Assembly (NCBI GenBank): GCA_964016885.1
Contig: OZ024745.1
Coordinates: 112,034,001 to 112,098,000 of the forward strand
From: Eledone cirrhosa
Lineage: Eukaryota
Length of the DNA stretch: 64,000 nucleotides
Reading direction: 5' to 3'
Shown here: positions 512-56,806 of the stretch, piece after piece
Layout: every line of letters starts with the position of its first letter
Position numbering within the stretch: the first letter of the stretch is position 1
Notes under the pieces: model-generated
The model's input: the letters and a program-made list of their open reading frames with translations, nothing else
What the model was told of the DNA's origin: nothing
Databases searched by the model: none
Program-made: the position numbers and the translations under genes

Positions 512-2637
512 CTACCCACCCGGGTCATGAGGGGGTTTGAGGGCGAGGTAAGTCCTACGCAATTGGTGTTTACATGCAGTTACAAGTTCGTCATTTTTGT
601 TTAGGAGTTGGTCCTTCGTAAACACCATTTGTATTGTTTCCTCCGAGCATAAGTTTCGCGGACGGCGCCCTCCCGTGTAGGAGTTAGCCCTGGACAGTAA
701 GCTCCAACTAAGATTGTATGTTATGTTATTATCTTGGAGGTCCCAAATGTGGCTTGAGAGTGTAGTGGCATGTTGCCGGACTGGATTTCAGAACGTATGT
801 CGGTGTGGTAGAGCCGGGTCTTAAATTCACAAGCGGTTAATCCTATATAGACTTTGTTGGAGTTTTGCGTCCTCACATTGCATTGGTAGATCACATTACA
901 TTCTTGGCATCTGTTGGTGAGGGGCATGTAGATCTATCAGGGCAGTTACACCTCCTGGTCGGCTCTCCATTAATGTCTAGGTTGTTTCTTCCATAGGAGT
1001 TGAGTTTCTTGTTGTTTGAGGAGGCGATGTTTTGTGCGAAGTTGGGTGTGGTGCTGTAGGAGAGTTTGATAGTGTTTTTGTTGGTTATGTTGTGGTAGCG
1101 GTGTTGTGTCGAGGAGCCTAAAGAAGATTCTCCCGATTGGAGTTGCCACCTCGCCATTGTGGGGAGGGTTGAACCATGTTAAGTGGTGTGAGCGGTGGCG
1201 TCGCCTGCAAGTTCTGCTAAGGGAAGCTGGATAAAAGGAGATTTCCTCCCGAAAGCTGCTTCACTTGAGAGCCTGATTGTAATAAGGCGCATATTCATCG
1301 AATATCTGCTCATTAGCGGACAAACGAGATATGCGAAGGGAGAAGTTTTTAACCAGGTTATTGGTGATGTTTCTAGGATGGTTAGATCGGCGGTGGATGT
1401 AGTGAGGGCTGTCATTTGGTTTCCTGTATGGGTAGTACAGATTATTTTCGAGGTTGAGGGTAACGTTCGGTAAATTGATTCGGGTTAGGGACGTTTGTAG
1501 GGTGATTTTAAATCCCCAGTCCTGAAAGAAGTTGATTAGTTGTTTACGAACCCGTTCTGTACTACTGGGGTTGTACCCTTTGAGGGTAAGGAGCCCATCG
1601 TCTTGGTACAATCCACCGCCAAATGCAGGAAACATTTCGGTGAGTTTATGTAGTAGGAATAATCCTATAAGACCAGTCAACTCAGCTGAGTCGGTTGCAC
1701 CCATACTGATATCGAAGGGGGAGTCAGGAGCTGTCTTTATCCACTTGGAGTTGTCGAAAAGGAGAAATGTCTTCCTGGCATGGAGAATGATGTTTCTTTC
1801 CTGGTTGGTGATGAGTGTGAGTCTTTTGGCAAAGTCCAAAGCGGCCGTAAGGAGCGGTAAGGTAATAGAGGTGTAATAGCTTTCTATGTCGAACTGGATG
1901 AATTTGGTGTCTTGTTTGTCCTCAATATTCCTGAACGCTGAGATCACTTCCTGGGTGCTGACCCAAAGGCTAAGTCTCACGTTTTGCTTAACTTTTGGTA
2001 TAACGCCGTCTAGGATCTTTTTACTGATTCTCCCTATGTCCGACTTTGTCCAGTTTATAAGCCTGATGGATGGTTTGCGATCGAATTCGGATTTATGGTC
2101 CTTCAGGGTGAAGTAGGGAGTCTGTGGGTCGAGAGGTTCAGTGCAGTCTGCGACCCCGAGGCTGGAGGTAATTTGTTGTCCATCTAGAATTATGTCATGG
2201 ATTATTGAATGGTTAGCCTTTTTGTAGGTGGAATTCAGGCTGCTCCTTATCAGTGTGTGGTATCTGTCAGAGTTGACGAAATAGAGGTTTCCAGTTTTGT
2301 CTGAATGCACCAGGATGTCGTTGGTTCTTTCATACTCCGTTATTTTGCTACGGAGTTGTTTGTGTCTGGGTTTGAATTTTATACCCTTGATCAGGTGGAT
2401 GACATCGTTCTCGAAGGGTGAGAGCATAGGGTTCGGTGGAGGAGATTTGTAGGTATTGAATCCGAATCTCTCCTTAGTGTCAAAGTCCTGGTTGTCACAG
2501 TATCTATCGTAGAAAAATGTTCTCTATCTCAGTCTTTTCGCAAACAGGTCGATTTTTTGCATGAGCATCCGAAGGTAAAGTTTTCTCAGTGGAACTAAGA
2601 TGTTCTTGGTGGAGAAGTTGATAGTGTGTTTTCACAT
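512..2637 (-). pseudogene. Disrupted PLE ORF (reverse transcriptase + GIY-YIG endonuclease)
   Basis: ORF-track pieces 1261-2427, 891-1157 and 721-927 join via an in-frame TGA at 1261-1263 and frameshifts; terminal TAG at ~512. Confidence 0.88.
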
Positions 2638-3519: not shown

Positions 3520-3855
3520 GGCGATATATTTGTTTTGCAAGGCTTTTGATATGAAATTGTGTGTTGAAACAGATATTGTTAGATTTGGGGAGGGTCATGT
3601 TTGTTCAATTGGAGGAAACATAGAAACATCACTGATGATGTCACAGATATGGGTGATGAAAGAACTCTTAGAAACTATATTTATATTCATATTTTTTAAC
3701 CGTTGGTCAATCAATGATAAACATTGATTGCCAACTAAATTATTTATAGAAATTAAAAAATATACTCAAGTAAAAACCAAACCAAACAGTGAGTGTGTTT
3801 TACTATATTTTTCTGGTAATATTAGAACAATGTGACCCTCCCTAAATATAACAAA
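3520..3855. repeat. Opposed fragments of the 'gaaatcgtgtgtcgaaac..ggggagggtc' repeat family
   Basis: Same family at ~38420-38530 and 55110-55589; 3690-3855 matches the right arm of the 55.4-55.6 kb inverted repeat. Confidence 0.6.
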
Positions 3856-53495: not shown

Positions 53496-53678
53496 AAATA
53501 TAAATTTATTGTCACAGACTGTCAATGTTTTTATGTAAATTATCAATGTAACTCTTCAAACAGATTTTAAAAAGACAGTAGAAGAAAACAACGCACTATA
53601 ATGATATAAATTTAATGCTTAAAAGAAGTAATCAAAGAGCCTTGATGTTTCAGACATTAGTTATACATATATATATGT

Positions 53679-54030
53679 GGAGGCACATGGCTTAGTGGTT
53701 AGTGCATTGGCCTTGCAATCTAAAGGTTGTGAGTTCAATTCTCAGACTGGGTGATGTGTTGTTTCCTTGAGCAAAACACTTTATTTCACATTGCTTCAGT
53801 TTACTCAGCTGTAGAAATGAGATGATAGGGACTGGGGTCCCTATCATTCCACTGCAAAGTGGTCGTGTAGGTGCCACGGCAAAAAAGGCACCCAGCAGTC
53901 GCTGTAAATGAGGTTGGTGTTAGGAAGGGCATCCAGCTGTAGAAATCAAGCCAGAATCAGTTCCCGTCCCATCCTTGCAAGCAGAGAAAAAGCGGCCGTA
54001 AAATGATGATAAAATGATGATGATGATGAT
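53679..54030 (+). mobile_element. tRNA-derived CORE-like SINE with RTE-type 3' tail (family B)
   Basis: tggcttagtggttag A box, gagttcaattc B box, ccttgagcaaaacacttta core, tail ggtgttaggaagggcatccagc..(gat)n shared with RTE copies in the window. Confidence 0.88.
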
Positions 54031-54198
54031 ATATATATATATTCAGCTTCACATTTGAAAAGAGGATAATAGCCCTGGAATATCACGTCAGAGTATACTT
54101 TGTTTTGTTATTTCTCATCATTTTCCCTTTGTATTTTTCTATCGCATTTTACCAGCTTTTTGAAAATTATCAGTTTTTACTATATATATATAAAAAAA

Positions 54199-54530
54199 AG
54201 GGTAAAGACCCCCCCCCCCTCGGTCACAAATGACCATGGGATTTGCACCTAGAAAGTTTTCCTCCCAGGCACAAGTCCAGGCAAGGTTGTTTGTGGAAGA
54301 CCAGCAGTCGTCCATGCATACCAGCCTCCACTCTCCATGCCACCGATGTTATCCAAGAGAAAGGCAAAGGCCGATACAGCTTGACACCAGTGGTATCGCA
54401 GCTCATTTCTACAACTGAGTAAACTGGAGCAATGTGAAATAAAGTGTCTTGCTCAAGAACACAACGCATCAAACTCACAACCTTTCGATTGCAAGTCCAA
54501 TGCTCTAACCACTAAGCCATGCGCCTTCAT
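54199..54530 (-). mobile_element. tRNA-derived CORE-like SINE (family C)
   Basis: Same head and core as family B, different tail ending ggtctttaccc. Confidence 0.85.
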
Positions 54531-54536
54531 AAATTA

Positions 54537-54580
<44 letters not shown>

Positions 54581-54802
54581 GATAACAGATTATTGTTATA
54601 GGTAGTCCACTTAAGTGTAGTCCAGTTAGGGTACTCCGCGTAGTGGATGATATTAACGCTTGGCTAAGTTTGACTCAACAAGGCGTTTCCATAGTGATGC
54701 TGCGAGTACTCGGTGATTTCTGTGTTGTTAACACTTGGAGTAATGATAAATCAGGAAAGAATAGTGACACGGTTTGCTATACAAATAAGGTTTTTAATCT
54801 CA

Positions 54803-54910
54803 TTGCTGACAATTGTTTCTCTGAACTGGTGGGTCTAGAGGTCGCTACCTGCCTGTTTTTGCGTCATTCGATCACCAATACATAGTTGTAACCAGTCAAT
54901 TCATCAGAGC
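54803..54910 (-). ncRNA. Type I hammerhead ribozyme motif (mirror copy)
   Basis: Minus strand gct-CTGATGA-attgactggt..accagttcaga-GAAA-caattg-TC-agcaa. Confidence 0.68.
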
Positions 54911-54931
54911 TTGCTCTGATGAATTGACTGG

Positions 54932-55041
54932 TTGCTCTGATGAATTGATTGGTTACAACTATGTATTGGTGATCGAATGATGCGAAAACAGGCGGGTAGC
55001 GATCTCTAGACCTACCAGTTCAGAGAAACAATTGTCAGCAA
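54932..55041 (+). ncRNA. Type I hammerhead ribozyme motif
   Basis: Stem I ttgct/agcaa; CTGATGA 54937-54943; long stem II region; GAAA 55025-55028; palindromic stem III acaattgt; GTC triplet with predicted cut after 55036. Confidence 0.72.
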
Positions 55042-55109
55042 TGAGATTAAAAACCTTTTTTGTATAGCAAACCGTGTCACTCTTCTTTCCTGATTTATAT
55101 ATATATATA

Positions 55110-55582
55110 TTAGTTTTACGAGGTTTTTGATATGTATGAAATCGTGTGTCGAAACAAATATTGTTATGCTTGGGGAGGGTCAAATTTGTGTAATAATATT
55201 GCCAGAATTAATAACAGAACACACTCACTGTTTGGTTGGTTTTCGCTTCTTTGTCTTTTATATCGGTTAATTTAATTTATTCGGTCCTCAATGTTGCCAT
55301 TGACTGACCAACGGTCAAAAATACAGATACAATATAGACACAAAGAAAAGATGACGTTAGCATACAATACAACGAATGAACTTTGTTAGACTATATATAT
55401 GTGTTTGTGTCTATATTGTATCTGTATTTTTGACCGTTGGTCAGTCAATAGTAACATTGAGGACCGAATAAATTAAATTAACTGATATAAAAGACACAGA
55501 AGCGAAAACCAACCAAACAGTGAGTGTGTTCTGTTATTAATTCTGGCAATATTATTACACAAATATGACCCTCCCCAAGTAT

Positions 55583-55589
<7 letters not shown>
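55110..55589. repeat. ~185-bp inverted repeat (arms 55159-55344 and 55404-55589) between (TA)n tracts
   Basis: Arms are near-perfect reverse complements; same family as 3520-3855 and ~38420-38530. Confidence 0.9.
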
Positions 55590-55663
<74 letters not shown>

Positions 55664-56009
55664 GTTATGTAATAAACAACAAGATAATTATTTCATTTAC
55701 CAGTGGTTTCTTGAAAGCAACCAAAATTGCTTTCATTTATCAGAATGAAAAAATCCTGGTGTCTTTATTGACAATGGATTTGAAAAACAAAAATATAACA
55801 GATATGAAAGTGAGGCTCGAGGAAAAAAAAGGGGGGGGGGGAATAATAAATAAGAATATATAACAACACACACGTACACACACACACGCACACACACACA
55901 CGCACACACACTCACATATACACACATATATACATATATATATATAAATATATACACGCACACATACACACAAATATACACAGAGGCACATATACACGCA
56001 CATACACAT

Positions 56010-56358
56010 CATCATCATTTCATCATTTCATCATTTCATTTTACGTCCACTTTTCCCTGCTTGCAAGGGTGGGACGGGAACTGATTCTGGCTTGATTTCT
56101 ACAGCTGGATGCCCCTCCTAACACCAACCTCATTTACAGTGAGTGCTGGGTACTTTTTTCCATGGCACCTCCACGACCACTTTGCAGTGGAATGATATGG
56201 ACCCCAGTCCCTATCATTTCATTTCTACAGCTGAGTAAACTGGAGCAATGTGAAATAAAGTGTTTTGCTCAAGGAAACAACACATCACCTGGTCTGAGAA
56301 TTGAACTCACAACCTTTCGATTGCAAGGCCAATGTTCTAACCACTAAGCCATGTGCCT
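56010..56358 (-). mobile_element. SINE family B, antisense copy
   Basis: Close reverse complement of 53679-54030. Confidence 0.88.
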
Positions 56359-56806
56359 ACACATATATAGATATATCCATACATAAATACACCAACACAC
56401 ATATATATATATATATATATACATACATATATATACATGCACACACATACATATATATACATATATATACATGTATATACACATACATACATACACACAC
56501 ACATACATACACACATATATATATACACATACATGCATACGTACTCACATATAAAAGGATACATATGCACACACACAAATAAGAATAAATAACCATAATA
56601 GGCCGTCACATAAATAATAAGGATTAAGAAAATGAAAAAATAAAAAAATAAAAAATATTATTAAGTTGACAGCTATATAAGACGGCAAAATTTAAAATAA
56701 AAATAATAATAATAATAATAATAAATGACCAAACGCACGTGGTAAGCAAATGCACAAAAAACCCCTAAATATATATATATATAAAAATATATATATATAT
56801 ATTTAT

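Follow-up and report, generated by a model that had tools for sequence, protein, structure and literature searches.

A fold-back end of a Hydra-clade Penelope-like element in Eledone cirrhosa with a predicted hammerhead whose 81-nt stem II covaries

What is a palindrome that carries a hammerhead motif on each strand, with 81 nt between the two halves of each core? It lies in a stretch of 64,000 nt of Eledone cirrhosa (GCA_964016885.1, contig OZ024745.1, positions 112,034,001 to 112,098,000), referred to here as the window. An initial annotation, made from the letters of the window, described back-to-back complete hammerheads with an unusually long stem II and placed them in a non-autonomous family related to Penelope-like elements (PLEs) or retrozymes. 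The description of the parts was borne out in part. The inverted repeat, noted as about 165 bp, has arms of 165 nt each (54746-54910 and 54934-55098) that are 95% complementary. CTGATGA lies at 54937 (+) and 54907 (-) and GAAACAATTGTC at 55025 (+) and 54819 (-), which puts the core halves 81 nt apart where about 80 had been read, and both arms hold CTGATGA, GAAA, the palindromic stem III and the cleavage triplet. The central 21-nt tandem pair (54911-54931 and 54932-54952) and the (AC)n and (TA)n flanks are present as well. However, the hammerheads are not complete, since both arms lack the outer stem I of intact family copies, in which 4 more nt pair (rel -14..-11 with +103..+106; relative positions, rel, count from core C3 = rel 0).

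The left arm (minus strand, 54578-54914) corresponds to a Hydra-clade PLE 3' end (pLTR) and is 93-95% identical to other copies. It is truncated at its 5' side 7 nt upstream of the core and extends about 170 nt past the inverted repeat, to 54578, where it reaches the long 3' end at rel about +330. Its hammerhead (54805-54910) consists of an inner stem I (54910-54908 with 54807-54805), CUGAUGA (54907-54901), an 81-nt stem II domain (54900-54820) in which private changes break two distal pairs, and GAAA, palindromic stem III and C17 (54819-54808), with the cut predicted after 54808. The right arm (plus strand, 54934-55098) is the inverted partner, up to 99% identical to other copies, truncated 3 nt upstream of the core and running to the short 3' end at rel +161. 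Its hammerhead (54934-55039) has an inner stem I (54934-54936 with 55037-55039), CUGAUGA (54937-54943), GAAA (55025-55028), a stem III palindrome (55028-55035) and a predicted cut after C 55036. When the 64-kb window was scanned for generic type I hammerheads, only the right-arm ribozyme was matched, via either duplicated CTGATGA copy, so that the motif goes beyond chance; the left arm went unmatched because its stem I is below the 5-bp threshold of the scan. The 5-bp stem I of the right arm takes its outer 2 bp from the junction, the native inner stem I being 3 bp. The junction duplication itself (54911-54931) is likely due to slippage during inversion. At the long-tail end the flank is (AC)n (54541-54578), where most other copies have (TA)n; at the short-tail end it is a (TA)n target flank (55096-55110), a junction that other copies show as well. 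Folding energies were -293 kcal/mol for the palindrome RNA as a hairpin and -150 kcal/mol with the ribozyme folded, and a read-through RNA of the locus would be predicted to fold arm to arm as a 165-bp hairpin. Because the outer stem I is lost and such an RNA would pair arm to arm, the window locus is probably inert and without function.

Several other features surround the locus. Directly to its right, at 55109-55590, lies a second fold-back with 187-nt arms (97%) from another repeat family with 742 candidates, whose long and short ends are in (TA)n too and of which a diverged copy stands at 3524-3854. No CUGANGA core was found within this second fold-back, which is probably another PLE-type end. 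The published Hydra-1_Obim consensus has the 13 nt of the short 3' end at our locus (TTTCCTGATTTAT, 55086-55098) close to its 5' end as well; they may mark a conserved RT start or boundary signal. An inverted pair of SINE-like repeats (53663-53990 and 56051-56376) encloses the locus, with a further feature at 54403-54526 and weak tRNA-like matches at 54456-54526 and 53686-53749.

We looked at the family to which the palindrome belongs. The right arm gave 1,593 candidate matches in the 3.0-Gb genome (40 of them were scored), and a family-specific 19-mer occurred 2,120 times, corresponding to about 2,100 copies. The presence of the family and its common variants were also seen in sequencing data, in three contig sets of one sample (among the 40 listed of 87 variant rows). 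Similarity among copies is about 85-95%. Their 3' ends fall at either of two fixed positions, rel +161 and about +330, almost always within (TA)n, and on the 5' side they run for variable lengths into an ORF with reverse transcriptase (RT) motifs followed by a C-terminal GIY-YIG domain with its YIG motif in order. A search for an RT ORF next to other copies had been suggested; one was found upstream, together with the endonuclease domain, and the PLE link that had been proposed was right. All family ORFs examined are broken, the longest open pieces being 470-492 aa, and a Pfam search of three of the ORF pieces returned no significant match. One locus, L066, is a whole pLTR-ORF-pLTR unit with its two hammerheads 3,622 nt apart and its ORF beginning about 55 nt beyond the long end, far downstream of the ribozyme. 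The family is thus not the non-autonomous one that had been proposed. The features of an endonuclease-bearing PLE were found in it, namely the pLTR-ORF-pLTR order, 5' truncation, the inverted partner and a tail at one end.

Within the PLEs, the family is placed in the Hydra clade by its protein motifs and (TA)n targets. The Hydra diagnostics RWK and DKT occur in 4/4 long copies and DKG in none of the four; the CxCX5C linker is in 4/4 and the CxxC..E..N..CxH arrangement in 3/4. There is no CCHH inside the GIY-YIG core, with one cysteine between the GIY-like and YIG motifs. Insertion into (TA)n holds for the family, the left flank of the window locus being (AC)n, and the 3,622 nt between the L066 hammerheads exceed the length of generally less than 3 kb given for the clade. 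Membership in the Naiads was rejected, since the family endonuclease is C-terminal. The window palindrome thus reads as the 3' end of a Hydra-clade PLE plus its inverted, 5'-truncated partner. Another PLE in the window (560-2523, minus strand) has protein pieces 33-53% identical to those of this family. The initial annotation, which had put it at 1-2.9 kb, called the two unrelated in sequence: there is indeed no DNA similarity, but by their protein sequences they belong in one clade. Inspection by eye of the ends of this PLE, and of a relative in L034, showed no canonical hammerhead core.

Is the back-to-back layout a design for dimers? We defined a fold-back as a junction within 30 nt of the core and found 15 such loci, against 0 in the reversed control. 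The long-end arm is present in 15/15; the short end is direct in 13, and deletions lie in that arm in 2. The 21-nt junction duplication was observed at the window locus only. The 15 loci have 7 junction lengths and different flanks, and the five that share a junction length carry different subfamily variants, so that by their sequences these are separate insertions. Inversion centres were also found elsewhere along the element. A junction hot spot at the ribozyme was considered and rejected, as 15 loci among about 2,100 copies fit ordinary short truncation (a rough estimate) and inversion centres occur elsewhere too. The published description of these elements (PMC8557442) counts among the PLE hallmarks both a partner that is inverted and 5'-truncated and a tail confined to one end, and opposite-strand hammerhead pairs 100-700 bp apart were interpreted as probable truncated PLEs in the survey of metazoan hammerheads (PMC4209133). 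The layout is thus a routine PLE inversion product and no design for dimers, its ribozymes being on opposite strands. By analogy with the PLE literature, the GIY-YIG nuclease would nick (TA)n DNA, reverse transcription would begin at two internal sites, one for the long end and one for the short end, and the palindrome would arise when it stops early and inversion takes place.

The palindrome could instead be a non-autonomous retrozyme-like or MITE-like unit in which the two hammerheads act together. The 15 junctions within 30 nt of the core, five of them of equal length, would suit such a unit, as would a different family, with a 97-nt stem II, that forms ORF-free tandem units of about 1 kb. 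But seven junction lengths, unlike flanks and mixed subfamily variants at equal junction length speak against it, as do inversion centres elsewhere, the opposite strands and the ORF in the family. No head-to-tail tandem of a 170-400-nt unit was found in the family of the palindrome, and ORF-less head-to-tail repeats with one hammerhead per unit, as in non-LTR retrozymes, do not describe it. We consider a retrozyme-like unit highly improbable. The locus is very probably a dead fold-back PLE insertion, with a long and a short 3' end joined just upstream of a canonical-core hammerhead that has an 81-nt structured stem II and is predicted to cleave slowly, likely with the assistance of a dimer or a protein.

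The annotation had also proposed a type I hammerhead whose palindromic stem III suits dimers, possibly with a non-canonical core. The first part was right. CUGANGA, GAAA and U16.1-H17 are present in both window arms, and stem III has a predicted energy of -6.4 kcal/mol as a duplex and +1.7 kcal/mol as a hairpin. It is invariant in the clade and differs yet stays self-complementary between families, which were selected for that property; published Hydra stems III are likewise self-complementary, with 3-4 bp in the listed rows (PMC8557442). As for the core, the base pair usual for type I at 10.1-11.1 is replaced by an A.A opposition in the window family, and other families have U.U, C.A or G-C there. 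An unpaired N.N opposition after CUGANGA and before GAAA occurs in 15/26 published Hydra rows (PMC8557442). The core is canonical and its A.A opposition fits the published Hydra pattern. Pairing straight after CTGA, on which the idea of a non-canonical core was based, is indeed the lowest-energy fold of the window family, but relatives keep the canonical register and in sister family B, described below, it is not the lowest-energy fold. The monomer fold compatible with catalysis lies 5-7 kcal/mol above the lowest-energy fold. A search of 53500-56500 against Rfam (E up to 10) gave no hammerhead family and matched miRNA-type hairpins only.

Variation in the core was examined in 33 ORF-selected copies from 27 loci, with a shared variant defined as one in 3 or more copies. 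G5, A6, G8, A9, GAAA and U16.1 have no shared variant in this set, and N7 and H17 vary freely across families; several sets of relatives were chosen on the core, so that core conservation among them is there by construction. In a search for relatives with the tail only, 1/7 matches reached an intact core; the other six had truncations or rearrangements inside the core or downstream of it. The change U4C is present in 9/33 ORF-selected copies and in about 51 of the first 100 of 688 exact family matches. In this U4C-core subfamily, which makes up about half of the listed exact matches, a core variant has expanded in nature to an unusual extent. A pseudoknot that would pair the stem I bulge with the apical loop (rel -7 with +46) looked compensated at first but was not supported: several copies disrupt its pairing, the two sites are CpG, and in family B the bulge has just 1-3 nt.

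Is the long stem II more than a tolerated insertion? The annotation was right to call it unusual, as the published Hydra maximum is 26 nt against 81 nt here, and it occurs family-wide. In the right arm (plus strand) the domain spans 54944-55024, the two end positions forming the A.A opposition. A basal helix of 9 bp with one bulge (54945-54953 with 55014-55023) is followed by a conserved GUA (54963-54965) opposite GAC (55009-55011), a middle helix (54971-54975 with 55000-55004) and an apical hairpin of 3 bp (54981-54983 with 54992-54994). In the ORF-selected copies, shared variants fall in 2/34 paired insert columns, both being C to U changes facing G that keep a G.U pair, and in 11/47 unpaired insert columns (two of them one indel). 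They fall in none of the 14 stem I and 6 stem III columns and in 36/336 flank columns. A core better conserved than its flanks was what the initial reading called for, and the core columns have 1/11; the overall contrast was 3/65 versus 47/383 (one-sided p 0.046).

Compensatory changes were also sought across copies and were found in stems I and II, both of which are backed by covariation. A sister family, B, came from a random sample; it is 65% identical over 353 nt of the 3' end (E 1e-32), has a Hydra-type ORF with pieces 51-67% identical, and carries an insert of 79 nt. It keeps 19/19 pairs of the stem II scheme, 8 of them with double changes, against 2-10/19 when the scheme was slid (47 and 16 copies), and relative to the window family its core is identical at 18/19 positions and its unpaired insert at 22/45. 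Four of the eight double changes hold in one register of the basal helix, and the BLAST alignment of that helix is a different one. With MAFFT columns, 5/17 pairs changed on both sides, a number matched by 105/500 shuffles, and pairing (96.7%) and covariation score were above all shuffles. In a wider clade of 23 sequences, with inserts of 65% mean and 44% minimum identity, 91.7% of cells pair against 23-40% in slid controls, and double changes occur in 10/18 pairs, which 4/500 shuffles reached; this test omits the distal half of the basal helix, which is not column-consistent in the alignment. RNAalifold alone recovers the middle and apical helices and misses the basal one. The unpaired GUA is present in 20/23 sequences (its U and A in 23/23), and A and C of the opposite GAC in 23/23. 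We take this opposition to resemble a bulged-G or loop E motif. Conservation is about equal in paired (0.76) and unpaired (0.75) positions. Judged from these alignments, the long stem II is real and selected.

We then asked how common such stems are in the genome. Sixty evenly spaced 10-kb stretches (600 kb) were scanned, requiring the core, stem III and 3 bp of stem I and no stem II. This gave 24 hammerhead motifs, against a mean of 0.13 and a maximum of 1 in 30 shuffles; 8/24 have spacers of at least 45 nt and 4 of at least 75 nt, the longest being 116. By extrapolation, some 120,000 hammerhead-like motifs of many families would be present genome-wide. The pattern CTGANGA N75-105 GAAACRATYGTH, which ignores the stems, has 12,548 sites versus 15 in the reversed control; a few of the matches are chance pairings. 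Among 31 long-insert clusters drawn from all loci retrieved, which include variants of the window family and a few probable chance matches, 23 have at least 7/8 basal pairs; of 896 cross-family controls, 11.5% reach this level. Covariation was seen in two unrelated long families too, at 6/38 (7 sequences) and 9/26 (4 sequences) predicted pairs. Inserts of 79, 81, 82, 90, 98 and 109 nt each lie, at one locus or more, 0.6-1.2 kb downstream of the end of a Hydra-like ORF on the same strand, and spacer lengths are continuous across families, from 10 to over 110 nt. Inserts of the 94-97-nt family have a branched fold. At least 6 copies with the 97-nt insert are identical over 221 nt and therefore long inserts go with recent spread. 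Rfam (E up to 0.01) found a hammerhead in 0/10 long-stem-II loci.

Two further observations concern stem II length. L196-L215 (e.g. L199, L200, L202, L212-L214) represent a very young family with the 97-nt stem II in tandem units of about 1.0 kb; none of the 20 loci examined had ORF similarity in these units, and the family is a candidate for a non-autonomous retrozyme-like PLE derivative with a long-armed hammerhead. At L105 (1263-1341, minus strand) the inner stem I and stem III are those of the window family, stem II has 20 nt and the core is U4C; this hammerhead is a natural short counterpart of ours.

How would such a ribozyme act in intact elements? The 8-nt palindrome would allow two ribozymes to form stem III between them, and cleavage would follow C17, which lies about 230 nt upstream of the long end and, in tandem arrays, about 285 nt upstream of the next ORF start. 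Slow cleavage of intact copies, assisted by a dimer or by protein, is on balance probable. Dimer action was proposed for PLE hammerheads, which cut weakly in vitro (PMC4209133), and the hammerhead of an Anolis PLE, in which two RT start sites define the tail, cuts only with its protein present (PMC11167929). Against cleavage stand the catalytic fold 5-7 kcal/mol above the minimum, the A.A at the base of stem II, where U.U is the best tolerated mismatch, and U4C, found in 9/33 ORF-selected copies and, among the first 100 of 688 exact matches, in about half. This change lowers activity in vitro and copies with it are common, therefore a weakened core did not stop amplification.

The same observations would suit a hammerhead fold that is non-catalytic or vestigial, with long-stem-II versions that no longer cut and transposition without cleavage. 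The strong amplification of the U4C subfamily, the A.A opposition and the unfavourable monomer fold point this way, as do the weak cleavage of metazoan PLE hammerheads in vitro (PMC4209133) and, in the Anolis element, catalytic mutants that still insert in vitro and RNA-seq ends of which none mapped to the cut site (PMC11167929). However, the catalytic positions listed above are free of shared variants in the 33 ORF-selected copies, N7 and H17 vary as catalysis allows, and in a viroid that has U4C, cleavage in vivo is still sufficient. We regard a non-catalytic fold as rather doubtful.

Alternatively, the long stem II could be a functional platform to which a protein, likely that of the element itself, binds so as to gate the ribozyme or to aid in loading the RNA, which would make it a natural protein-controlled hammerhead. 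Three helices that covary despite the low insert identity of the clade, the near-invariant unpaired GUA opposite GAC with its likeness to bulged-G/loop E, and a competing fold that hides the core and is favoured in the monomer would fit a platform, and so would the protein dependence of the Anolis hammerhead (PMC11167929). But other long families have inserts of different sequence and shape (branched in the 94-97-nt family), lengths form a continuum between 10 and more than 110 nt, conservation hardly differs between paired and unpaired positions, and the competing fold is not the lowest in energy in family B. A binding platform seems to us rather unlikely. Its boldest form would be that PLEs of this genome evolved type I hammerheads with conserved 45-116-nt stem II domains (loop E-like in the window clade) that bind the RT-endonuclease and switch cleavage, making natural protein-gated ribozymes at more than 12,000 sites invisible to current descriptors; this we hold to be unlikely. 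Slow, assisted cleavage remains our preferred reading for intact copies.

Altogether, the locus itself is an ordinary PLE fold-back, and the novelty lies in the long stem II with its covarying pairs, which is abundant in this genome and escapes Rfam. The natural hammerhead fold is thereby widened to covarying 45-116-nt stem II domains in many PLE families of one animal genome. Stem II is also the site where engineers graft aptamers. Related families with short and long stems II and the natural U4C subfamily are ready pairs for testing what PLE hammerheads do. Craig et al. searched with a core-only descriptor in which the core halves could be 7-17 nt apart (PMC8557442), and because of this limit and the Rfam misses, hammerhead counts in such genomes are likely too low. 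Published Naiads with core halves 35-50 nt apart deserve a re-test and, if the protein-gated reading were true, some 'hammerhead-less' or 'half-core' PLEs in print may hold real long-stem-II ribozymes.

These elements can be compared with known systems as far as the published sections and tables used here describe them. The Hydra clade (Craig et al. 2021, PMC8557442) shares RWK, DKT, CxCX5C, CxxC/CxH around E and N, and (TA)n, as well as a partial tandem pLTR, a 5'-truncated partner in inverted orientation and a tail restricted to one end; its hammerheads likewise lie near the 3' end, with a 4-bp self-complementary stem III and often N.N at the base of stem II. In contrast, spacing from CUGANGA to GAAA is at most 26 nt in the 26 published Hydra rows, against 81 here and up to 116 in other families; the unit measures about 3.6 kb, where 'generally <3 kb' is given as a tendency and not as a rule, and the tail about 170 nt, against 30-40. 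Minimal metazoan PLE hammerheads (Cervera and de la Pena 2014, PMC4209133) are also type I, borne on pLTRs, with a palindromic stem III and a proposed dimer, but their helix II has 7-8 bp, a short loop and a conserved G10.1-C11.1, whereas ours is a domain of several helices with A.A as its closing opposition. Poseidon of Anolis carolinensis, PAc (PMC11167929), shares two internal RT start sites, an AT-rich target and a pLTR hammerhead; its short stem II overlaps the ORF start, which here lies about 55 nt past the long end. Animal non-LTR retrozymes (PMC7229834; bioRxiv 10.64898/2026.07.22.740005) are alike in their type I hammerhead and PLE relationship and differ as ORF-less head-to-tail repeats of 170-400 nt, against an inverted pair from an ORF-bearing family here. 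By its motifs, the window element is thus a Hydra-clade PLE end with a type I hammerhead and no retrozyme. In the literature as accessible to us, including PMC3088659, PMC10085705 and PMC13725137, we met no account of animal PLE hammerheads with stems II of 75-116 nt; Lunse et al. 2017 (PLE hammerhead variants), the Terminon paper or supplements may describe long ones. Enlargement of stem II as such has precedent in two rows for spike-moss PLE-X1 (File S2, PMC8557442), where it reaches about 50 nt and is marked non-canonical. Those elements differ in being from a plant and endonuclease-less, in two families, with a shorter stem II for which we saw no covariation analysis in that source; the enlargement is common to both.
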